From the NCBI GenBank assembly GCA_021786105.1, contig JAJYNW010000011.1, forward strand, positions 1-11,606: a DNA stretch of 11,606 bases, read 5' to 3'. Below are positions 140-11,496 of this stretch, piece by piece; positions within the stretch are counted from its first letter, which is position 1; every line of letters starts with the position of its first letter. The notes beneath the pieces were generated by a model that worked only from the letters and a program-made list of their open reading frames with translations, did not search any database and had not been told where the DNA came from. The position numbers were made by a program, and so were the translations under genes. The stretch is from a bacterium (GTDB taxonomy: Bacteria; Patescibacteriota; Microgenomatia; Daviesbacterales; UBA10151).

Positions 140-169
140 TTGACGCCTGCATAAAATTTTCTGTACAAT
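140..169 (+). promoter_or_regulatory. Putative sigma70 promoter of the atp operon (leaderless type)
   Basis: TTGACG at 140-145, 18-nt spacer, TACAAT at 164-169. The in-frame ATG at 177 lies 7 nt downstream and has no SD. Confidence 0.6.
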
Positions 170-176
170 GAACAAA

Positions 177-899
177 ATGGAAAATACGATTGTTTTAAAG
201 CCCGAGATTTTGGGATACTTCCACAACTTCCCCATTGCCAATACTTTGCTGGTTAGCTGGATTGTCATGGTTGTTTTAATTATTGTTTCTTTTCTGGCTA
301 CCAGAAAAGTGCAAATGGTGCCCAATGGCTTACAGAATTTATTTGAAATCATCGTTGATTTTGGTTATACCACTGTGGAAGATCTGGCAGGCAGCAGCAA
401 AGCTAAAGTTTTCTTCCCAATTGTGATGACTTTTTTCCTGTTTATTTTATTTTCCAACTGGATTGGTCTTTTGCCGGGTTTTGCCACCATTAAGTTTCAT
501 GGAGAGCCGCTCCTCCGTTCCATGAATTCTGATTTAAATATGACTTTGGCCTTGGCTTTGGTTTCTGCTTTTTTGACCCACGCCTTTGCTATCCGCTATC
601 TAGGTATTGCCGATTATTTAAAAAGATGGTTTACTTTAAATCCAATATTTCTTTTTGTGGGATTGCTGGAATTGGTAGGAGAAGTGACAAAAGTGGTCTC
701 GCTATCCTTCCGGCTTTTTGGTAATATATTTGCCGGGGAAGTGGTTTTGGCAACGGTTTCAACAATCTTTGCCTTTATAGCACCACTCCCTTTTTATTTT
801 TTGGAGATTATTGTAGGATTTGTACAGGCTGCAGTTTTTATGATGTTAACGCTCGTGTTTATGACGTTATTGTCAGAAAAACATGCTGCTGAGCATTAA
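177..899 (+). CDS. atpB: F0F1 ATP synthase subunit a
   Basis: Hydrophobic protein with NWIGLLPG, SLSFRLFGNIFAGE (essential Arg) and VQAAVF motifs. The ORF track starts at 168, but that ATG overlaps the -10 box, so ATG 177 is preferred. Confidence 0.97.
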   Translation: MENTIVLKPEILGYFHNFPIANTLLVSWIVMVVLIIVSFLATRKVQMVPNGLQNLFEIIVDFGYTTVEDLAGSSKAKVFFPIVMTFFLFILFSNWIGLLPGFATIKFHGEPLLRSMNSDLNMTLALALVSAFLTHAFAIRYLGIADYLKRWFTLNPIFLFVGLLELVGEVTKVVSLSFRLFGNIFAGEVVLATVSTIFAFIAPLPFYFLEIIVGFVQAAVFMMLTLVFMTLLSEKHAAEH

Positions 900-917
900 A
901 AAAAGAAAGGAGTAAAA

Positions 918-1121
918 ATGGAAAACTTGCCATCTGCTTTAGCAATTGCAATAGGCGCAGTAGGTCCGGCTATCGGAATCGGCCTTATTGGTATGAAGGC
1001 TATGGAATCAATCGGGAGAAATCCTGATGCCCAGTCGAAGATTTTACCGGCGATGCTTTTAGGTATGGCTTTTGCTGAAGCTATTGCTATTTATGCTTTG
1101 GTGATAGCTTTCATTAAGTAA
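918..1121 (+). CDS. atpE: F0F1 ATP synthase subunit c (H+-type signature)
   Basis: 67 aa helical hairpin with a Gly-rich first helix, RNP loop and carboxylate in FAEAIAIY. Strong SD AAAGGAG at 906-912. Confidence 0.97.
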   Translation: MENLPSALAIAIGAVGPAIGIGLIGMKAMESIGRNPDAQSKILPAMLLGMAFAEAIAIYALVIAFIK

Positions 1122-1272
1122 GACGCAGCTCGTCTGGCCGCAAAGCACCGCTCGCACGTCCAAGTCGCTCGCTTAAGGTTTGTTTCGCGCCCAGTACGGA
1201 TTCGGTACACGGACAAGGTGGTGTGTTCAACTGCACCATATGCTTTGACTGGCTCAGACTTCGCTGCTTTTT
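1121..1272 (+). other. GC-rich multibranch structured intergenic element (cis-RNA or palindromic insertion, family unknown)
   Basis: Nested complementary segments GCAGC/GCTGC, GTCTG/CAGAC, GCC/GGC, CAAAGCA/TGCTTTG and GTCC/GGAC, inner hairpins, and a downstream T5 tract. Confidence 0.6.
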
Positions 1273-1284
1273 GCTGATATCAAT

Positions 1285-1779
1285 ATGGAAATTTTGAACC
1301 AATTCGGAATTAATCCATTACTTTTGGCCGCGCAAGTGGTTAATTTTGCCATTCTTCTTTTTATCTTGCGGAGGTTTTTATATAAACCGATCTTGAAAGT
1401 TTTGGAAGAAAGAAAACAAAAGATTGCAGATAGCTTAAAAAATGCGGAAGAGATTGAAAGAAGATTAAATGAACTTAGCGAGAAAGAAACGGAAGCACTT
1501 ATAAAAGCTGGAAAAGAAGGCCAAAAGATTATTCAGCAGGCCGGTGAGGAATACAAACAAACAGTAGAAGAGGCCAAAAAGGAGTATGAGAGGATTATCA
1601 ATAAGGCAGTTGAAGATGCCAAGAAATTAACAGAACTGGAGAAAGTTAGGTTGGAGCAGCATGTCAAGGAGAATTTGGGAGATATTGTGGCGATGGCGCT
1701 CGAGAAAGTGACCGGTAAAACTTTAACCGGAAAGAAAGAAAAGGAGATAATCGAGAAAGAGATTAAGAATTTATCATGA
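1285..1779 (+). CDS. atpF: F0F1 ATP synthase subunit b
   Basis: N-terminal TM segment (QVVNFAILLFILRRFLYKPILKVLEERKQKI) followed by a charged coiled coil; expected operon position. Confidence 0.95.
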   Translation: MEILNQFGINPLLLAAQVVNFAILLFILRRFLYKPILKVLEERKQKIADSLKNAEEIERRLNELSEKETEALIKAGKEGQKIIQQAGEEYKQTVEEAKKEYERIINKAVEDAKKLTELEKVRLEQHVKENLGDIVAMALEKVTGKTLTGKKEKEIIEKEIKNLS

Positions 1780-2168
1780 CAAAAAGACAATTACAAAAAA
1801 TCGTGAGAGAACTGGTAAATGTTAGTTTTAAAGATGACAGAATGGTGGAAGTTCAGGTGTTAAGATCAATTAAGACTTTAAAATCTCTCCCCAGATCAGA
1901 AGCAATCCAGGCGTTATCAGAATACCTGAAGGGATTAAAGAGAATAGAGAGAGAACATACACTTTATATTGAAGCAGTAATGCCGCTTTCCCCTATCCAA
2001 GTTAAGAAAATTAAGCAAAAAATTGAGAGAAAAGCCACCATTACTAAAGTAGTGGTAAATATCAATCCGGAAATTCTGGGTGGAATTAAACTGCGGATTG
2101 GAGATGAAATATGGGACGAATCAATTTCTGGTAAAATTAACCAGGTGAAGGAGGCAATCAGTGGCTGA
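1776..2168 (+). CDS. atpH: F0F1 ATP synthase subunit delta (shortened)
   Basis: C-terminal delta/OSCP motif [30 protein letters not shown] overlap with atpF. Only 130 aa. Confidence 0.9.
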
Positions 2169-3672
2169 TTTAATTGCGGAAATAGAAAGTCAAATTAAAG
2201 GGTTGAAACTTAAAGCCCAGAGAGAAAATGTGGGGGTTGTTACTGAAATCGGCGACGGCGTGGCCAGGATTGAAGGTCTGTCCGATGTTAAATATTCAGA
2301 GCTTTTGGATTTTGGTAAAGGTGTAACTGGTTTGGCTTTGAATTTGGAACAATACAATGTCGGAGCGGTGATTTTTGGTGATTTCACTAAGATTAAAGAA
2401 GGTGATCAAGTTAAGACTACCGGGCAGATTTTGCAAGTGCCGGCAGGAGAAGCTTTGATTGGCCGGGTAGTTGACGCTTTAGGTAACCCGATTGACGGCA
2501 AAGGCGCCATTAAGACCAAAGACCGCTATCCGGTGGAAAAAATTGCCCCCGGAGTGATTACCAGACAAAAAGTCAATACGCCTTTGCAAACTGGAATTAA
2601 GGCCATTGACAGCATGATCCCAATTGGTCGGGGCCAGCGGGAGTTAATTATTGGTGATAGGAGCACCGGTAAAACTACTATTGCTATTGATACCATTATT
2701 AACCAAAAAGACGTCATTTGTATTTATGTGGCCATTGGTCAAAAAACTTCCAAGGTAGCTCAATTAGTGGCCAAGCTGGAAGAGATCGGCGCCATGGATC
2801 ATACTATTGTGGTGTCAGCGACTGCTTCTGAGTCAGCTACTATGCAGTACATTGCTCCATACGCCGGTTGCGCCATGGGTGAATATTTCATGGATCAAGG
2901 CAAAGACGCTTTAATCATCTACGATGATTTATCAAAACATGCCCAAAGTTATAGACAGGTATCGCTTCTTTTGAGACGTCCATCCGGACGTGAAGCTTAT
3001 CCGGGAGATGTGTTTTACCTGCATTCCCGGTTGCTTGAGCGGGCTGCTAAATTAAATAAGGATTACGGTGGCGGGTCACTGACCGCTCTCCCGATTATTG
3101 AAACCCAGGCCGGTGATGTGTCTGCCTATATTCCCACTAACGTCATTTCTATCACTGATGGACAAATTTATCTGGAATCAGATTTGTTCTTTGCCGGAAT
3201 TAGACCGGCGGTTAATGTGGGTTTGTCAGTGTCCCGGGTGGGCGGTGACGCTCAGACTAAAGCCATGAAGTCGGTGGCCGGTCCGCTCCGGCTGGATCTG
3301 GCTCAATTTAGAGCTTTGCAGGCTTTTGCTCAATTCTCCTCTGACTTAGATCCAGCTACCAAGGCCCAAATCGAAAGAGGGAAAAGAGTGACGGAAATCT
3401 TAAAGCAGCCCCCCTACTCTCCGGTTTCTGTTGAAGAGCAAGTGGTAATTTTGTGGGCAGTGACCCACGGGTATTTGGATGAAATAGAAGTAGAAAGGGT
3501 GCGTGATTTTGAACAAAAATACATTGCTCACCTTAAACTGCGGGAGAAGAAACTGCTGGCTGAGATAGCAGAGAAAAAGGCGCTGGATGAAAAAATGACC
3601 AAAGATCTGGAAAAGGTGACAAAAGAGTTTGTGGGAATATTTGGAAAGTCGGTGAAAGGAGCTAAAAAATAG
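2161..3672 (+). CDS. atpA: F1 ATP synthase subunit alpha
   Basis: [17 protein letters not shown] Walker [20 protein letters not shown] and [13 protein letters not shown] motifs. GTG start with SD AAGGAGG at 2148-2154. Confidence 0.99.
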
Positions 3673-3749
3673 AGTCCAGTTGCTAGAATCTAGAGTCTAG
3701 TTCTGTATTGCAGAATTTTTAGACTCTCGACTCTTGACTCTAGTCACTA
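3670..3749. repeat. Inverted arrays of degenerate heptamer repeats around a small hairpin
   Basis: Left arm TAGAGTC CAGTTGC TAGAATC TAGAGTC TAG; centre TTCTG-TATTG-CAGAA; right arm TAGACTC TCGACTC TTGACTC TAGTCAC TA. Confidence 0.75.
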
Positions 3750-3753
3750 ACGA

Positions 3754-4635
3754 ATGGCTAATACCAGAGAATTAAGACGCAGAATAAGATCAGTTAAAAA
3801 TACCGCTCAAATCACCAAAGCTATGCAAATGGTGTCTGCCACCAAGATGAGAAGAGCGCAAAATCAGGCTTTAAACGGCCGCCCGTATAGTTTTAATTTA
3901 AGTTATGCCCTTAAAAGGCTTTTGCCTTTGGTTGATACGGAGTCTCATCCTTTGTTAACAAGACATGATTCTAAAACCCAAGGCATTATTTTGTTATCAA
4001 CCGATAAAAGTTTGTGTGGGGCTTTGAATACTAATTTATTCCGGACACTGCTGGCTTCTAACCTATCCGAGGCAGTTTTTTATACCGTGGGCAGAAAAGG
4101 CCGCGAGTTTGTGATCAGAACAGGTAATAAGCTAGTAGCTGATTTTGAAAATTCCGATACAGTGGTTTTTCGGCAAGCTGCGCAGCTTGCTAAACTGGTG
4201 ATAGAAGCTTTTTTAAGCGGAGAAATTGGCGAGGCTTATATAGCTTTCCCCCGTTTTGTGTCCACTTTGCGGCAGGAAGCGATGAAGGTTAAGCTGTTAC
4301 CGATAGAATATTCGGAATTGGAAGCATTAATTGCTGCTCAGTCTGAAGGAAAATCTAAAGAGGGTGATTTGGCAAAAAGTGAGTTTCTTTTTGAGCCGGA
4401 TCCCAAAAAACTTTTGGATTTTATCTTAAACCACTATATTGAAATTAAAATTTACCAATCCTTGTTGGAAACCAAGGCTTCGGAACATTCAGCTCGGATG
4501 ATTGCCATGCAAAATGCCACTGATAATGCTTTGGAGCTTGTAGATGATCTTAATCTTGCCTATAATAAGACCCGTCAAGATTCAATTACCAAGGAGCTTT
4601 TGGAAATAACAACAGCCTCTTTGGCAATGCAGTGA
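3754..4635 (+). CDS. atpG: F1 ATP synthase subunit gamma
   Basis: IRSVKNTAQITKAMQMVSATKM, DKSLCGALN and SEHSARMIAMQNATDNA...RQDSITKELLEI motifs. Confidence 0.99.
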   Translation: MANTRELRRRIRSVKNTAQITKAMQMVSATKMRRAQNQALNGRPYSFNLSYALKRLLPLVDTESHPLLTRHDSKTQGIILLSTDKSLCGALNTNLFRTLLASNLSEAVFYTVGRKGREFVIRTGNKLVADFENSDTVVFRQAAQLAKLVIEAFLSGEIGEAYIAFPRFVSTLRQEAMKVKLLPIEYSELEALIAAQSEGKSKEGDLAKSEFLFEPDPKKLLDFILNHYIEIKIYQSLLETKASEHSARMIAMQNATDNALELVDDLNLAYNKTRQDSITKELLEITTASLAMQ

Positions 4636-4642
4636 CGCTTAG

Positions 4643-6090
<1,448 letters not shown>

Positions 6091-6259
6091 ATATCCTCAA
6101 AATTCAAGGAGGCTTGAGAAACTATTCCGGGAGCTTCGATAACATTTTATCCAACCTTAATTAGATCGGAAAGAAAGCCAGCACTAGTAGACCATTTAAA
6201 AAGAAAGAAAATATATTGAGAATGAAACAAAGTTTCGCGTAACGAATGCAAGTATGAAT

Positions 6260-6625
6260 TTAGGAAATTGGTTCAAAAGTACCATCGAGGTGAAGATAAT
6301 AAGTTTCCACTTCTAATTCAGGATATTGAGCTTTGATTTTAGCAGCAGCGTTTTTTAAATCTTCTGCATGCTTTTCCACAGTTCCCGCTTCCCCATATGC
6401 TCCACAATCTTCGTGGTTTATTAACACGGCTTTTTTAATATGATGCAGTCTTTTTGATATCCCAACTTGTTTTAAAATATAATCCAGATCAAACACGCCT
6501 CCGGCACTAGCTACCCTATCAAAAGACCGAGGGGGAAATTTTTCCGTGATCCACTTATTGATATATTCCTGAAATCGGAAATCGATACAGGTAACAATAA
6601 CGGCTTCGCAATTATGATCGGACAT
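6260..6625 (-). CDS. Minimal beta-class carbonic anhydrase-like metalloprotein
   Basis: Zn-ligand motifs C-I-D-F-R (CxDxR) and H-E-D-C-G (HxxC) with an intervening AGG; 121 aa. Confidence 0.8.
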   Translation of the reverse strand: MSDHNCEAVIVTCIDFRFQEYINKWITEKFPPRSFDRVASAGGVFDLDYILKQVGISKRLHHIKKAVLINHEDCGAYGEAGTVEKHAEDLKNAAAKIKAQYPELEVETYYLHLDGTFEPIS

Positions 6626-6632
6626 GGAGAAA

Positions 6633-6638
6633 ATTTTA
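6633..6638 (-). promoter_or_regulatory. Putative -10 box (TAAAAT) for the leaderless beta-CA-like gene
   Basis: Minus-strand TAAAAT ends 7 nt before the ATG at 6625; no SD. Confidence 0.45.
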
Positions 6639-6645
6639 CACTATT

Positions 6646-6674
6646 TTGCTCTTCCTGAACAGATTTGTTATACT
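6646..6674 (+). promoter_or_regulatory. Putative sigma70 promoter with extended -10 for the zeta-CA-like gene
   Basis: TTGCTC at 6646-6651, 17-nt spacer, TG-n-TATACT at 6666-6674. Confidence 0.65.
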
Positions 6675-6686
6675 ATCAGATAACGG

Positions 6687-6714
6687 ATTCGACCCACTTT
6701 GGGTCGGATTTTTT
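6687..6714 (+). terminator. Terminator-like hairpin plus T-tract in the 5' leader
   Basis: CGACCCA-CTT-TGGGTCG stem (6690-6706), extendable by ATT/GAT, followed by TTTTTT at 6709-6714. Confidence 0.5.
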
Positions 6715-6720
6715 AAAGTT

Positions 6721-7365
6721 ATGGCAACAGAATTGAAGACACATCCGCAGTATAATTCTACAGAAGTAGAAAGATTTTTTGTAGGTAGAGGATGGAAAGT
6801 AGAGTTTGTTAGAGTCGGTAATGAAGATTTGGTTCCAGCAGAAGAAGGTGCCGCAGTGGAATGTATTGATGGCCGGTTTGGAAAGAGAAAAGAGATAAAA
6901 AAGCATGGCCCGAAACTTCCGGGCGCTTCTCTTGCAATAGCGGCTTCGAAAACAGGCGGTAATACAATAGGATTTAATGCAGCAGCCTCAGAAATTGCCA
7001 GACTGGGTTATCGGGCTGGTACCCACGTACATTGCGGATTTCTCCATTTATGGCAGAATGGAGAATTAGTGGCAGTAAAGCACAAACTAGAGCTGCCTAA
7101 TATACCAGATCAGGCGAATTGGATGGTTCTCAAGCAAAAACAATGGGGAGGTAAACACTTTCATATATCTGATGAACACGAAGAAGAGGCTTTAACCTTT
7201 AATCCGTTTCTTGGGTTGACAAATAAGGCAAGGAAAGATAGGTTTGGTTACGACCACTGGTTAATGCAAATTTTAGGGATCCACAGAAGAAGCGCAATGC
7301 ATTTAGTTGCAGAAACGGTTGAAAGAATATCTTCTCACAGGAAAGTTGAAATTCTGACTAAGTAG
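6721..7365 (+). CDS. Zeta-class (cadmium, CDCA1-like) carbonic anhydrase homologue, single domain
   Basis: 214 aa from ATG 6721 (the TTG at 6646 coincides with the -35 box). Motifs GRGWxxE, CIDGR, GPKLPG, H..CGFLHLWxxG, HxE, DRFxxDxW and AETVE are colinear with the diatom CDCA1 repeat as I recall it (GRGWDAE, CVDGR, GPKMPGG, CGFFKLWVTG, HTE, QRFIVDGW, AATVE). Confidence 0.82.
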   Translation: MATELKTHPQYNSTEVERFFVGRGWKVEFVRVGNEDLVPAEEGAAVECIDGRFGKRKEIKKHGPKLPGASLAIAASKTGGNTIGFNAAASEIARLGYRAGTHVHCGFLHLWQNGELVAVKHKLELPNIPDQANWMVLKQKQWGGKHFHISDEHEEEALTFNPFLGLTNKARKDRFGYDHWLMQILGIHRRSAMHLVAETVERISSHRKVEILTK

Positions 7366-7371
7366 TATAAT
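7366..7371 (+). promoter_or_regulatory. Consensus -10 box (TATAAT) directly before atpC
   Basis: Perfect TATAAT 7 nt upstream of ATG 7379. No SD and no well-spaced -35. Confidence 0.55.
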
Positions 7372-7378
7372 ATTAAAT

Positions 7379-7789
7379 ATGGCTCAGCTGCATTTAAAAA
7401 TTGTTACTCCGGAAAAACTGCTAATTGATGAGGAAGTTTCACAGGTGAATGTTTCTACCGAAGAGGGGGAAATTGGCATACTTCCCCACCATGCTAATTT
7501 AATGGCTAAACTTACCCCCGGTGAATTAATTATTAAAAAGAACGGAAAGGTTGAATCATTGGCTATCGGGGACGGGTTTTTACAGGTGGCGGATGATGTT
7601 TTGACAGTGATGACGGATTTGGCAACTTATGCGGTTGATATTGACGAAAGAGCGGTTGAGGAGGCCAAAAAACGAGCTGAGCAGGCTTTAACCCAAACTT
7701 TGTCTGACGAAGAATATGCGGATACTTTGGCCAACTTGGAGAAATCCCTGGCCCAACTTCGGGTGAAAAGACGCCATAGAGTGAGGTAG
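7379..7789 (+). CDS. atpC: F1 ATP synthase subunit epsilon
   Basis: LKIVTPE and GEIGILPHHA motifs, GFLQV beta-sandwich and C-terminal helical hairpin (EAKKRAEQAL...LAQLRV). Confidence 0.97.
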   Translation: MAQLHLKIVTPEKLLIDEEVSQVNVSTEEGEIGILPHHANLMAKLTPGELIIKKNGKVESLAIGDGFLQVADDVLTVMTDLATYAVDIDERAVEEAKKRAEQALTQTLSDEEYADTLANLEKSLAQLRVKRRHRVR

Positions 7790-7790
7790 A

Positions 7791-7819
7791 TTGGTAATTA
7801 ATCACTTCTGTTATACAAT
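7791..7819 (+). promoter_or_regulatory. Putative sigma70 promoter of the glycosyltransferase cluster
   Basis: TTGGTA at 7791-7796, 17-nt spacer, TACAAT at 7814-7819; ATG 8 nt downstream. Confidence 0.55.
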
Positions 7820-7827
7820 ATTTAGAC

Positions 7828-8751
7828 ATGGCCAGTAGCGAAAATCCCGATCTTTCAATTATTATCCTTAATTACAATGTTAAGGAGCTGTTATTAAACT
7901 GTTTAGAATCTACTTTCAAGAACAAAACCAGCTCTGACCAGTGGCAAGTGATTGTGGTGGATAACGCCTCTTCTGACGGGTCAGTTGAAGCTGTCAGGGA
8001 AAAATATCCGCAAGTTGAGCTGGTGGAAAGTAAAAAGAATTTGGGGTTCGCCGCCGGTAATAACATGGGAGTGTTATTGGCTAAGGCCCCTGTTATCCTC
8101 TTTCTAAATCCGGATACGGTGGTAGTCGGTCAAGCTATCCAAAAAACTTTGGCAGTTTTATTATCTAATCCTGATTTTGGGGTGGTTACTTGTAAGGTCG
8201 AGCTGCCGGATGGCCGGATGGATTATTCTTGTCATCGCGGCTTCCCTACTCCCTGGAATTCATTGGCCTACTTTAGCGGTTTTGCCAAAATGTTTCCCAA
8301 ATTAGCCTTGTTTTCTGGGTATACCGCCAGTTTCTTGGATATCTCAAAAGCTCACGAAGTAGATTGCATCAGCGGAACTTTTTTGATGGTTAGAAAGATT
8401 GCCGGGGAGCAAATTGGTTTTTGGGATAAGGATTATTTTTTTAACGGCGAGGATATTGAATTTTGTTATTCTTTAAAACAAAAAGGCTGGAAAATTTATT
8501 ATTATCCGGAGGAAAAGATTATTCACTACAAAGGTTCTTCTTCAGGCCTTTGGCAAACTGGTGCCGTTAAGGTGGAAAGAGGGACAAAACTGACAGCTGC
8601 CACTCATGCTGCTTCAGCTATGCGGATTTTTTATAAAAAACATTATTATAAAAACTATCCTCCTCTACTGCGGGATTTTGTCTTGGGGGGAATAAAAATG
8701 CTGGAGCATTACCGAAAATTTAAGATCATCACCGGATTGAAATATGAATAA
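7828..8751 (+). CDS. Family 2 glycosyltransferase (WbbL/rhamnosyltransferase-like)
   Basis: SIIILNYN, VVDNASSDGS, NLGFAAGNN, LNPD, EDIEFC and IIHYKG motifs. Confidence 0.93.
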   Translation: MASSENPDLSIIILNYNVKELLLNCLESTFKNKTSSDQWQVIVVDNASSDGSVEAVREKYPQVELVESKKNLGFAAGNNMGVLLAKAPVILFLNPDTVVVGQAIQKTLAVLLSNPDFGVVTCKVELPDGRMDYSCHRGFPTPWNSLAYFSGFAKMFPKLALFSGYTASFLDISKAHEVDCISGTFLMVRKIAGEQIGFWDKDYFFNGEDIEFCYSLKQKGWKIYYYPEEKIIHYKGSSSGLWQTGAVKVERGTKLTAATHAASAMRIFYKKHYYKNYPPLLRDFVLGGIKMLEHYRKFKIITGLKYE

Positions 8752-9661
8752 TTTAGATTTAACAGTAGTCATTTTAAGCTATAACACCAAAGATGTAACC
8801 GGTCGGTGTTTGGATAAGCTGAAAATTTCCAAGGAGTATTGCGAAAAAAAATTCAAAAACAAAGTGCGGGTAATTGTAGTAGACAATGGGTCGTCTGACG
8901 GATCAGTTGGCATGATTAAAACCGAACATCCTTGGGTTAAGCTGATTGCCCTGGCAAAAAATTCCGGTTTTTCCGGCGGCAATAATTTGGCAATGAAAGA
9001 AGTTAAAACCCCTTTCATACTCCTCCTTAATTCTGATGTGTATTTGGAAGAGGAAAGTTTGTATAAGGCTTTAGCCTATTTCCGGGTGAATTTAAATTGT
9101 GATGTGTTGGGAGCCAGGTTAAATTACGCCAATGGTTCTTTACAACCCAGCGCCGGCAATTTACCAAATCCTTTGAATATTATTTTTTGGATTTTAGGTT
9201 TGAGTTTGCTTCCGGGAATTAGTCAACTCGTTCCCCCATTTCACCCCAAGGATAAAAAATATTTTTCCAAGGCCCATCAAGTTGATTGGATTATGGGGGC
9301 TTTTTTTATGCTTAAAGAGGAAGTTTACAAAAGAACCGGTGGGTTTGATGAAAAACTGTTTATGCATATGGAAGAGGTGGAATGGTGCAAAAGAATCAGG
9401 CGACGTGAGTATAAAATTTGGTATGTTCCCCAAGTGGAGGTTACCCATCTGCATGGTGCTTCCACCAATTTTGATTTAAGTCTCAGTTTCCTAAATGAGC
9501 TAAAAGGTATTAAATATTATTTACAAAAACATTATCGTTTTTTCTATCCTCTGCTGAAGCTAATACTGAGCTTTGGTTTGATAATGAGAGTAATCGCTTT
9601 TTCTCTTTTAGGAAAAACTAAAAGAGCCAGGGTTTATGTAAATGGATTAAAGGTAATATAG
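8744..9661 (+). CDS. Family 2 glycosyltransferase (WbbL-like)
   Basis: VVILSYN, VVDNGSSDGS, GFSGGNN, LNSD, GFDEKLFMHMEEVEWC and HLHGAS motifs; 8-nt overlap with the upstream GT. Confidence 0.93.
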   Translation: MNNLDLTVVILSYNTKDVTGRCLDKLKISKEYCEKKFKNKVRVIVVDNGSSDGSVGMIKTEHPWVKLIALAKNSGFSGGNNLAMKEVKTPFILLLNSDVYLEEESLYKALAYFRVNLNCDVLGARLNYANGSLQPSAGNLPNPLNIIFWILGLSLLPGISQLVPPFHPKDKKYFSKAHQVDWIMGAFFMLKEEVYKRTGGFDEKLFMHMEEVEWCKRIRRREYKIWYVPQVEVTHLHGASTNFDLSLSFLNELKGIKYYLQKHYRFFYPLLKLILSFGLIMRVIAFSLLGKTKRARVYVNGLKVI

Positions 9662-9662
9662 A

Positions 9663-9702
9663 TGTCATCCTTCACCCCGATTAATCGGGGTTCAGAATGA
9701 CA
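9663..9702. repeat. GTCAT...ATGAC-bounded palindromic (REP-like) element
   Basis: TGTCAT (9663-9668) and ATGACA (9697-9702) enclose the perfect 18-bp palindrome ACCCCGATTAATCGGGGT (9674-9691). Confidence 0.7.
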
Positions 9703-9711
9703 GTAAAAAAT

Positions 9712-11496
9712 ATGGAAAAAATTGCAGTAATTACAGTTAATTACAATGGTAAAGAAGATACTTTGGAGTTTTTGGAATCTTTAAAAAAACTGGAAACTAA
9801 AAACTGTAAGGTGAGAACTATTGTCGTGGATAATGCTTCCAATGATGGCAGTGTTTCCGCTATCCATAAAGCTTTTCCTAAGGTGGATGTTTTACAAGCC
9901 GGAGCCAATTTGGGTTTTGCGGGAGGTTATAATAAAGGTTTGGAATACGCCCAAATCTGGGGAGCGGATTATTTTTTGCTGATTAATAATGATTGTTTGA
10001 TTGGTGATGCTGATTTGTTGACTGAATTAGTAAAGACTTTGAAGTCTGATCCGGAAATTGGTTTAGTTTCCCCCAAGATTTATTTTGCCAAAGGATTTGA
10101 GTTTCACAAAGACAAATATAAAGAACAAGATTTGGGTAAGGTTATTTGGTATGCCGGCGGCAAATTTGACTGGGATAATATTGGCAGTTTGCACCGCGGC
10201 ATTGATGAAGTGGACAGTGGTCAATATGACGAGGTGGAAGAAGCCGAGATTTTTTCCGGGGCGTGTGTTTTGATTAAGAAAGAGGTTTTAGAAAAAGTAG
10301 GACTTTTAGATGAAAAATACTTCCTGTATTTTGAGGACAGTGATTTGGCCAAAAGAGCCAAAATGGCCGGATTTAAGATTTACTATAATGGCAAAACCTC
10401 TGTTTATCACAAAGTTTCCCGATCCACCGGCTTAGGTTCGAAGATTACTGATTATTATCATGCCAGAAACAGGTTAATCTTTGGTCTGCAGTATGGCAGA
10501 TTCAGAACTAAGTTTGCCTTGCTCCGGGAGGCGGTAAAATTGTTTATCTTTGGTAGACCAGCTCAACGCCTGGGGGTTTTGGATTATTATTTGGGAATAA
10601 TTGGCGGCAAAACAGATTTCATGGAGCTTTCAAATAATATTGAATACCCGCTTAAATTATCAATCGGTATCGTCAACTACAATACTGCTGATTTAACCAA
10701 AAAACTTCTGCAAAGTATTTTTAAGAAAGATTCTGGTTATGACGCTGAAAAAATGGAGGTCATAGTTTTGGATAATGGTCTACTGGATTCCTGCAAGGAA
10801 GAAATTAAAGAATTTTTGCCTAAGGTTAAATATTTGCAAAATAGCGAAAATGAGGGTTTTTCCAAAGGTTATAACAAAACCATTAAATTTTCCCTTGGTG
10901 AGTATTATTTAATGCTTAATTCGGATATAGAAGTTTTGGAAAGGGCGCTTTCAGAATTAGTTAGGGTTGAGGACGAATTTAAAGGTGAGGTGGCTTTAGG
11001 CGGAAAATTAGTTTTTCCCGATCTGAGCAATCAGGATTCGGCATTTTATTTGCCGACCATCACCGGTGCTTTGAAAGAATACTTCCTGGCTCAGCCAGGG
11101 TCTTACTTTATGTATCAGCCTTCGGGTGAAAAACCGGTTAAGGTGGAAGGAGTGGCAATGGCTTGTTTGTTGATCCCGAAAAAGATTATTAAAAAAGTTG
11201 GACTTTTGGATGAAGGGACATTTATTTTCTTTGAGGATATTGAATATGCCAGAAGGCTTAAAGAGCATAGTATTCCTGCTTATTTTGTACCTAAGGCCAG
11301 GTTTATCCACTATCACGGCGGCTCCACTAAAAGAATCGGTCAGGAAAAAGCTACTGAGCATTTAGTGAAGGCTGCCAAGCATTATCATGGCATGTTTTAT
11401 TACACTTTACTGACTTTTGTATTGCGCTTAGGACAAAAATTCGGCCGGGTGGAAACTCCGGTAACTAAGTGGAAAACTACCGCAATGTCCCCGTAA
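9712..11496 (+). CDS. Tandem two-domain family 2 glycosyltransferase
   Basis: Domain 1: VITVNYN, VVDNASNDGS, INND, FLYFEDSDL. Domain 2 from ~10651: SIGIVNYN, VLDNG, LNSD, FIFFEDIEY, HYHGGS. ATG 9697 lies inside the palindrome, so 9712 is preferred. Confidence 0.92.
   Translation: MEKIAVITVNYNGKEDTLEFLESLKKLETKNCKVRTIVVDNASNDGSVSAIHKAFPKVDVLQAGANLGFAGGYNKGLEYAQIWGADYFLLINNDCLIGDADLLTELVKTLKSDPEIGLVSPKIYFAKGFEFHKDKYKEQDLGKVIWYAGGKFDWDNIGSLHRGIDEVDSGQYDEVEEAEIFSGACVLIKKEVLEKVGLLDEKYFLYFEDSDLAKRAKMAGFKIYYNGKTSVYHKVSRSTGLGSKITDYYHARNRLIFGLQYGRFRTKFALLREAVKLFIFGRPAQRLGVLDYYLGIIGGKTDFMELSNNIEYPLKLSIGIVNYNTADLTKKLLQSIFKKDSGYDAEKMEVIVLDNGLLDSCKEEIKEFLPKVKYLQNSENEGFSKGYNKTIKFSLGEYYLMLNSDIEVLERALSELVRVEDEFKGEVALGGKLVFPDLSNQDSAFYLPTITGALKEYFLAQPGSYFMYQPSGEKPVKVEGVAMACLLIPKKIIKKVGLLDEGTFIFFEDIEYARRLKEHSIPAYFVPKARFIHYHGGSTKRIGQEKATEHLVKAAKHYHGMFYYTLLTFVLRLGQKFGRVETPVTKWKTTAMSP

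Follow-up and report, generated by a model that had tools for sequence, protein, structure and literature searches.

How might a bacterium with a genome of about one megabase have come to carry, within its ATP synthase operon, a carbonic anhydrase (CA) of the zeta class, and how did the metal site of that enzyme acquire the ligand spacing of the beta class? This question is raised by contig JAJYNW010000011.1, from a member of the Patescibacteria, which was analysed over its whole length of 11.6 kb (hereafter, the window) and which belongs to a genome assembly of 1.04 Mb in 26 contigs that is 92% complete. The open reading frame at positions 6721-7365 of the forward strand translates into a protein of 214 amino acids, P0001, a homologue of CDCA1, the cadmium-containing carbonic anhydrase from the diatom Thalassiosira weissflogii. 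Taking the comparisons below together, we favor the view that P0001 is an active cytoplasmic zinc CA whose metal site is derived, loop-less and beta-like and whose function is linked to the F-type ATPase. The gene and the motifs of its predicted active site are as follows.

6721-7365, forward strand: gene for a CDCA / zeta-class carbonic anhydrase, single repeat, 214 aa (P0001), assigned from Pfam PF18484, CDCA1 matches and the structural model.
6862-6876, forward strand: CIDGR, with Cys48 as the first metal ligand, Ile49 of the pocket and the Asp50/Arg52 dyad, assigned from family conservation and the alignment with CDCA1-R3.
7024-7035, forward strand: H102-V-H-C105, second and third metal ligands, H-x2-C, assigned from a seven-residue gap relative to CDCA1, conservation and the model.
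7177-7203, forward strand: H153-E-E155 ... N161, a family-invariant motif, assigned from conservation and the CDCA1 alignment.

The Pfam CDCA family (PF18484) was matched by P0001 with an E-value of 4.8e-10 and 39.8 bits (cut-off, 29.2) over profile positions 2-183 of 184. When all PDB sequences were searched with phmmer, the three repeats of CDCA1 (R1-R3; entries 3bob, 3boh, 3uk8 and 7bez) were found at E 6.8e-11, 1.3e-8 and 4.4e-7, at about 24-26% identity and in an alignment that is colinear across residues 14-212; beyond these repeats, no PDB match was better than E 0.017. With a profile of 80 family members (alignment A2), the same repeats were matched with E-values between 3.7e-54 and 1.9e-52. 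An AlphaFold2 model of P0001 based on the A2 alignment had a mean predicted local distance difference test score (pLDDT) of 97.4 and a predicted template modelling score (pTM) of 0.92. With this model, Foldseek returned six matches at E<=1e-3, all six to CDCA1 chains (template modelling scores of 0.83-0.86; root mean square deviation, rmsd, of 2.4-2.9 Å), and VIA-align ranked the CDCA1 chain 3uk8_A first among 48,161 representative chains (Z 26.6, rmsd 2.0 Å, 200 residues). As judged from the model, P0001 has the full zeta-class fold and is a stand-alone, single-repeat member of the CDCA family. A preliminary description of the window had proposed a stand-alone bacterial homologue colinear with one CDCA1 repeat, and the Pfam score, the phmmer alignment and the modelled fold all agree with it. 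The same description had reckoned with the case that no significant profile or structural match to CDCA1 would be found; both kinds of match exist (E of about 1e-54 with the A2 profile, Z 26.6). The motifs that it had read, CIDGR at 6862-6876 (residues 48-52) and THVHCGF from 7021 (residue 101), lie where it had placed them.

P0001 differs from CDCA1 in several respects. Its gene, flanked by other genes, encodes one repeat and not three in tandem, and its host is a non-photosynthetic bacterium with a genome of about 1 Mb rather than a diatom, the gene lying within the atp operon. A longer frame opening with a TTG codon at 6646 was dropped because 12 homologues begin level with the ATG at 6721; close homologues of P0001 are 212-233 aa long. 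No signal-peptide-like N-terminus was seen in the translation by eye, no predictor being used. The prokaryotic CDCA family has few members, a search of 1.84 billion representative proteins giving 80 clusters at E<=1e-3, and it also includes longer forms of about 315-362 aa with an N-terminal extension, as well as two-repeat forms. Further profile scans yielded two loci in genome contigs and, with a smaller alignment (A4), two short metagenome contigs. A close relative of P0001 already bears the NCBI name ‘cadmium-containing carbonic anhydrase’, so the homology itself is already known to databases; the NCBIfam search gave no family for either of the two CA genes of the window. All matches to the ESM Atlas features for P0001 scored below 0.9, including clusters of bacterial ‘putative cadmium-containing carbonic anhydrase’, CsoSCA and LCIB, and we regard them as leads only; the Atlas's own model of P0001 is poor (pLDDT 0.31).

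Does P0001 retain the catalytic apparatus of CDCA1? In the third repeat, CDCA1-R3, the metal is held by Cys473, His525 and Cys535, water is bound by Asp475 and Gly536, and the CO2 pocket is formed by Val474, Phe537, Phe603, Thr627 and Leu631 (PMC8217695). We mapped these numbers to P0001 through the HMMER alignment, with an offset of +411 from the chain index that reproduces all three ligand numbers. The ligands then correspond to C48, H102 and C105, the water-binding residues to D50 and G106, and the pocket residues to I49, F107, F175, T199 and I203, of which three are identical and two conservative; R52 aligns with the Arg of the R3 dyad. Each catalytic feature named for CDCA1 in the available text of PMC8217695 thus has its counterpart, by alignment, in P0001. 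Among 84 aligned family members, C48, D50, H102 and C105 are each kept in 83 and R52 in 82; H153 is kept in 83, E155 in 75 and N161 in 80, and CDCA1 has the same residues at these last three positions (gsHeEk..yiN). Within the 80 sequences of A2, C48, D50, H102, C105 and H153 are invariant, and R52, G63, G68, E155, N161, T167, F175 and D178 are each conserved in more than 90%. The likeness to CDCA1 accordingly extends from the fold to the Cys-His-Cys triad, the Asp/Arg dyad, the Gly after the second Cys, the CO2 pocket and the H-x-E...N motif. Two further features had been suggested as additions to this site, and neither stands out in the family. The His/Glu-rich patch KHFHISDEHEEE (residues 145-156) owes H153 and E155 to the family at large, CDCA1 included, and is nothing out of the ordinary for its members; the ‘extra His’ beside the second Cys ligand, H104, is a His in only 10 of 27 x2 sequences (those with two residues between His and Cys).

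The difference lies in the loop between the last two ligands. In the HMMER alignment, a query gap of seven residues between H102 and C105 faces H-GDHSSDMLG-C of CDCA1, and the gap is present against all three repeats; P0001 has H-x2-C and does not have the H-x9-C loop of the CDCA1 type. In the model, the strand formed by residues 100-102 passes straight into the helix of residues 106-112. The shortening to the beta-CA spacing, which the preliminary description had stated, is thus shown by the alignment tool itself. With C48-I-D-G-R52 and H102-V-H-C105, P0001 carries the beta-CA ligand signature CxDxR ... HxxC. How widespread is this spacing? We surveyed 71 family representatives at 50% identity with lengths of 150-260 aa, and the spacing was x2 in 14, x3 in 3, x5 in 1, x6 in 5, x7 in 1, x8 in 16, x9 in 23, x11 in 3 and x12-14 in 4, with a ligand missing in 1. 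All 13 close homologues of P0001 are of the x2 type, and x2, x5, x6, x8 and x9 all occur among the syntenic CDCA copies within the order to which the window belongs. Across the sequences surveyed, H-x2-C is a common minority state of the family, neither unique nor the norm: P0001 is a prokaryotic CDCA-like protein of the x2 subclade, and most other members are of the x8-x9 type. It had also been considered that HxxC might prove to be the norm already described for prokaryotic homologues, which does not agree with the 14 of 71 representatives; our literature search found no description of prokaryotic CDCA loops.

How might the short loop have arisen? A tree of 92 rows was computed with IQ-TREE (quick mode) after removal of the loop columns; it is unrooted, with a midpoint root only, and 12 of 93 proteins were left out because their lengths lay outside 180-260 aa. 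Support was measured by the Shimodaira-Hasegawa-like approximate likelihood ratio test (SH-aLRT). P0001 belongs to a clade of 19 rows, all x2 (SH-aLRT 96), which is nested in a clade of 47-54 rows mixing x2, x5-6 and x7-8 forms, and all the other deep lineages are filled by x9 forms. Forms with x2 or x3 also occur as sisters of x8 forms (P0022/P0023, support 81; P0020/P0024, support 85), inside an x6 clade (P0026, support 94) and among the x9 lineages (P0065, P0067 and P0069). An approximately unbiased (AU) test rejected a single clade of all 31 x2-3 rows (log-likelihood difference 219.5, p 3e-6). A phylogeny with prokaryotic CDCA-like proteins had been proposed as a check on the status of the short loop; this one scatters the x2 forms over the tree and argues against their single origin. 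The long loops share the motif HG[AD]xH..GC across all deep lineages and the diatom CDCA1. Because one motif is shared in all deep lineages, the long loop was inherited, an argument that is independent of the root, and since losing a loop several times is far easier than gaining one motif several times over, the short loop would be the derived state. Short loops most likely arose by repeated deletion within the prokaryotic family, and the H-x2-C of P0001 is probably a derived trimming that converged on the beta-CA spacing rather than a vestige of a passage from the beta to the zeta class.

The gene lies at the end of the ATP synthase cluster of the window, next to a second CA gene on the opposite strand.

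168-4635, forward strand: atpB-atpG, from the list of open reading frames.
4723-6090, forward strand: atpD (F1 beta subunit; PF00006, 253 bits), the last atp gene ahead of the two CA genes.
6260-6625, reverse strand: gene for a minimal beta-class CA of 121 aa (Pfam Pro_CA_2, PF20393) with CxDxR and HEDC, assigned from Pfam, orthologues and a model.
7379-7789, forward strand: atpC (F1 epsilon subunit; PF02823, 90.7 bits; PF00401, 34 bits), 13 nt after the CDCA stop codon.

The order in the window is thus atpB-atpG, atpD, Pro_CA_2 (antisense), CDCA and atpC, followed by three family-2 glycosyltransferase genes. The antisense neighbor matches PF20393 with 61.4 bits (cut-off, 30), and its residues C13, D15, R17, H71 and C74 are invariant across 27 Pro_CA_2 orthologues. 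Its model (pLDDT 93.9) gave 95 Foldseek matches at E<=1e-3, and those among them that were listed are all beta-CAs or carbonyl sulfide (COS)/CS2 hydrolases of the beta-CA fold; on this modelled structure and the conserved motifs, it is a minimal beta-CA. The host genome, at 92% completeness, contained no match to PF00484 or PF00194 (canonical beta-CA and alpha-CA) or to RuBisCO.

Is this arrangement found elsewhere? The order to which the window belongs comprises 96 genomes, all of one family (genomes and loci are labelled G and L, respectively). PF18484 was found in 13 of these genomes, in 12 above the cut-off, and PF20393 in 55; 10 genomes have both CA genes, 3 (G012, G013 and G038) have only CDCA, 45 have only Pro_CA_2 and the remaining 38 have neither. 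In 11 of these 13 CDCA loci, atpC directly adjoins the CDCA gene on the same strand; in the other two, the CDCA gene lies 823 nt from atpC (L014) or in a stretch that, as far as examined, holds no atpC (L008). Identical CDCA proteins (L002/L012 and L003/L010) were counted once. For Pro_CA_2, 30 loci of the order were compared, and in 25 of them atpC lies on the divergent side, usually 20-150 nt away. Among 401 genomes sampled evenly over the phylum, PF18484 was seldom found (in 6, of which 3 above the cut-off, the genome of the window included), whereas PF20393 occurs in 62; outside the family of the window, atpD, atpC and Pro_CA_2 stand in line on one strand in 14 of 28 Pro_CA_2 loci. One of the five other CDCA-like matches of the phylum (L047; 362 aa, 29.7 bits) follows atpC directly, and another, in a different family (L048, region 578-2853; 315 aa, 23.3 bits, below the Pfam cut-off), is located between genes for an MscL channel and an MIP aquaporin, about 0.5 kb from atpC. 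Two unrelated CA classes repeatedly fill the slot beside atpC across many lineages of Patescibacteria, and this slot is more novel than the enzyme itself, whose class is known. Our literature search found no description of a linkage between CA and atp genes, nor of a CA slot beside atpC in Patescibacteria.

Some loci of these surveys deserve separate mention. In L016 and L024, which have no PF18484 match, the gaps between Pro_CA_2 and atpC are about 0.55 kb and 1.2 kb and might hold a decayed or very divergent gene. In the phylum loci L065, L068 and L079, Pro_CA_2 is found about 1 kb from a gene 34-50% identical to atpD, which may belong to a different type of ATPase.

What would the enzyme do in this position? 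In the mechanism that we propose, a divalent metal, most likely Zn2+, would be bound by Cys48, His102, Cys105 and a water molecule, and the Asp50-Arg52 dyad together with the backbone of Gly106 would orient the metal-bound hydroxide. CO2 would occupy a hydrophobic pocket lined by Ile49 and Phe107 of lobe 1 and Phe175, Thr199 and Ile203 of lobe 2, where attack by the hydroxide would yield bicarbonate. The diatom enzyme is cambialistic, hydrating CO2 with Cd as well as with Zn. The loss of its nine-residue loop would put two of the ligands on a tight strand-to-helix turn, as in beta-CAs. The metal-free and metal-bound forms of CDCA1-R1 differ mainly at the two Cys ligands and in ‘region 107-115’, the rearrangement of which is taken, in the available text, as the reason for the easy metal exchange of CDCA1 (PMC4413181). 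If R1 is numbered 2 x 210 residues below R3, we infer that its ligands are Cys53, His105 and Cys115, and region 107-115 would then be the loop that P0001 is missing. Because the loop region of CDCA1 moves in the metal-free form as described there, a loop-less site is predicted to be more rigid and poor in metal exchange; in P0001, the metal would be more firmly fixed, and Zn and Cd would be swapped less easily. Five DNA sequencing runs from two studies (mine tailings and mine drainage metagenomes) hold 80-100% of the sampled words of positions 6100-7900; these habitats are metal-rich, three of the runs may be the source of the window, and they are not independent evidence on the metal of the enzyme.

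The slot beside atpC is occupied in Patescibacteria by a minimal beta-CA, a zeta-CA or both, and the likeliest role of its occupant would be a fast interconversion of CO2, bicarbonate and protons in support of the F-type ATPase, through proton supply and cytoplasmic buffering as the ATPase of a fermentative cell pumps protons out or lets them in. Because a CA of either class serves, it is more likely the reaction itself (CO2 + H2O <-> HCO3- + H+) that forms the link to the ATPase than a docking of the protein. In animal cells that secrete acid, V-type or P-type proton pumps receive H+ from the hydration of CO2 by cytosolic CA II, and we propose this feeding of an ATP-driven proton pump by a CA as an analogy for the slot in the atp operon, although the proteins are unrelated and the animal system is eukaryotic and has no genetic linkage, whereas here the association is one of gene order in a bacterial F-type operon. 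Alternatively, the CA might control local bicarbonate; bicarbonate is an activator of F1 hydrolysis, a point that our literature search did not confirm.

Several observations weigh against our view of P0001 as an active zinc CA with a derived loop and a tie to the ATPase. First, the tie is drawn from gene order alone, and atpC need not be co-transcribed with the CDCA gene, given a promoter-like TTGAAA and TATAAT, about 15 nt apart, seen in the consensus scan and by direct reading at 7346-7378, partly within the 3′ end of the CDCA gene and ending 6 nt before the atpC ATG; by its sequence, atpC may have its own promoter, with a very short or absent leader. In addition, a search of RNA sequencing runs listed none holding the stretch. 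Second, the CDCA tree is unrooted, most of the relevant forks have SH-aLRT values below 95, the group submitted to the AU test was chosen after the tree had been seen, and the rejection may stem in good part from three distant rows on long branches (P0065, P0067 and P0069). Third, the equation of region 107-115 with the missing loop depends on a repeat period of 210 residues inferred from the numbering of R3. Fourth, CDCA is patchy in the order (13 of 96 genomes), it is only 63% identical to its nearest congeners, against 85-89% for atpC and 78-86% for Pro_CA_2, and in one congener (G089) there is only a remnant of 110 aa of an x6-type CDCA between Pro_CA_2 and atpC (L015:1525-1767), which looks like a loss in progress. 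Patchiness, faster divergence and the remnant mean that selection on the gene may be weak or conditional.

This fourth point is the ground for the alternative that survives best, in which the zeta-CA is a redundant accessory on its way to being lost: the beta-CA would suffice, the zeta-CA would be under relaxed selection and loop loss would be a symptom of drift. The main argument for it is the slot itself, with its two types of occupant and its pattern of repeated loss. Within one genus, the same slot holds two CDCA types about 31% identical to each other, x2 in G000, G078 and G091 and x6 (HSADHGGC) in G079 and G088; between the x6-type loci L005 and L007 and the x2-type loci (the window, L010 and L012), atpC is 85-89% and Pro_CA_2 76-86% identical, and the leader is nearly identical. 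This suggests a cassette-like replacement together with repeated loss, or the sorting of old paralogues. The prevalence of Pro_CA_2 without CDCA (45 genomes, against 10 with both and 3 with CDCA alone), the faster divergence of CDCA than of its flanks and the very labile loop length point in the same direction. We nevertheless consider redundancy unlikely, because the frame is intact, the catalytic and pocket residues are all kept and invariant over 80 diverged sequences, the x2 clade persists over at least 19 diverged rows, and G012, G013 and G038 keep CDCA in genomes that have no Pro_CA_2.

Could P0001 instead be an evolutionary intermediate between the beta and zeta classes, as the preliminary description had suggested, one that kept the H-x2-C of an ancestral beta-CA from before the insertion of the zeta loop? 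P0001 does share CxDxR, HxxC and the ligand set with the beta-class CAs (PF00484), a true beta-CA with the same motifs adjoins it, and the tree, being unrooted, leaves polarity unfixed by topology alone. After CDCA1, moreover, the VIA-align ranking continues with two beta-CAs, 1ddz_B (the tandem pseudo-dimer of Porphyridium purpureum; Z 5.4) and 8thm_A (Z 3.3). However, the match to 1ddz_B, the best to any beta-CA, covers 160 residues at an rmsd of 4.1 Å and is below the level at which the tool is reliable, Foldseek found no beta-CA with the P0001 model at E<=1e-3, and the Pro_CA (PF00484) profile gave no match to P0001 at E<=0.1. A common origin of the two neighboring CA genes was not detectable either, hhalign aligning their families at the CxDxR motif only, with a probability of 1.9%. 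Of the superpositions on both classes that had been proposed, the one on CDCA1 is thus strong (Z 26.6) and the one on beta-CA is not, and P0001 is not a member of the beta-CA family, although its metal site would work in the manner of a beta-CA. One zeta repeat has been likened to a beta-CA dimer, which it is said to mimic (PMC4413181), and a beta-CA pseudo-dimer as the next match is consistent with this view as given in the available text, yet it does not make P0001 an intermediate. Since the long-loop motif is present in all deep lineages and in the diatom enzyme, as expected if it was inherited once, and since x2 forms stand beside x8 forms and inside an x6 clade, with a single origin of the short forms rejected, we regard an intermediate as improbable.

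It is likewise doubtful that an active P0001 acts mainly on something other than CO2, for example as a CS2/COS hydrolase or another small-molecule hydratase. The repeats of CDCA1 hydrolyse CS2 besides CO2, according to the available text of PMC8217695, and beta-CA-fold COS/CS2 hydrolases are among the structural matches of the neighboring protein (3vqj and 3ten). On the other hand, the residues of the CDCA1 CO2 pocket are kept or conservatively replaced in P0001, nothing in the window points to sulfur metabolism, and the recurrent partner is the ATP synthase, which is more directly linked to H+ and HCO3-. That P0001 is a physical subunit, docking on F1 epsilon or elsewhere on the ATP synthase as a CO2- or bicarbonate-dependent regulator, would fit the 13-nt spacer to atpC, the adjacency kept in 11 of 13 genomes and the second arrangement downstream of atpC in L047, but is very unlikely, as the unrelated zeta and minimal beta folds interchange in the slot, a pattern more in keeping with a common product than with a common docking surface.

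Returning to P0001 as a zinc CA tied to the ATPase, we can speculate how close this tie might be. A more far-reaching version, which we consider possible but hold only tentatively, is that the CA is an accessory to the F-type ATPase, integrated with it genetically, and that the loop-less zeta form is streamlined, locked to Zn, selected for this role and perhaps exchanged between relatives as a cassette. In these fermentative bacteria with their tiny genomes, such an accessory would feed or buffer the protons of an ATPase that largely pumps, or would set the local bicarbonate that regulates ATP hydrolysis.

The leader of the CDCA gene contains two further elements, both read directly from the sequence.

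6666-6674, forward strand: TGTTATACT, a putative promoter element (extended -10) in the intergenic stretch between the two divergent CA genes.
6690-6714, forward strand: G+C-rich hairpin of 7 bp, CGACCCA-CTT-TGGGTCG, followed by GA and a T6 run that stops 6 nt short of the CDCA start codon.

Leaders of both x2- and x6-type loci have kept the putative promoter TGTTATACT; the consensus promoter scan did not call it. The hairpin and T-run are found at the same place in the window and in L002, L003, L005, L006, L007, L009, L011, L013, L046 and L051. The stem varies on both sides between loci, and the structure recurs not only in x2 and x6 but also in x8 and x9 loci, as well as in L046, which belongs to a different family. 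In this very short leader, it looks like a terminator or attenuator; the consensus terminator scan did not call it, the likely reason being a stem that can reach into the T-run, and a search of the whole window against Rfam gave no matches. Downstream of atpC, the three successive family-2 glycosyltransferase genes occupy positions 7828-11496, the last encoding 599 aa with two GT2 domains; the first is kept in the relatives L003, L010 and L015.

Zeta-CAs are given for diatoms only in Table 1 of a 2020 review (PMC7215798), and in our literature search PF18484 was mentioned by a Tara Oceans paper alone, as far as the available texts go. In the prokaryotic family described here, the loop thought to allow the swapping of cadmium and zinc has between 2 and 14 residues, which provides a natural deletion series to study loop function, in which a zeta active site would have converged back to the exact ligand spacing of beta-CAs. 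The presence of a CA of either class beside atpC bears on the handling of protons and CO2 around the ATP synthase in these reduced, host-dependent bacteria.

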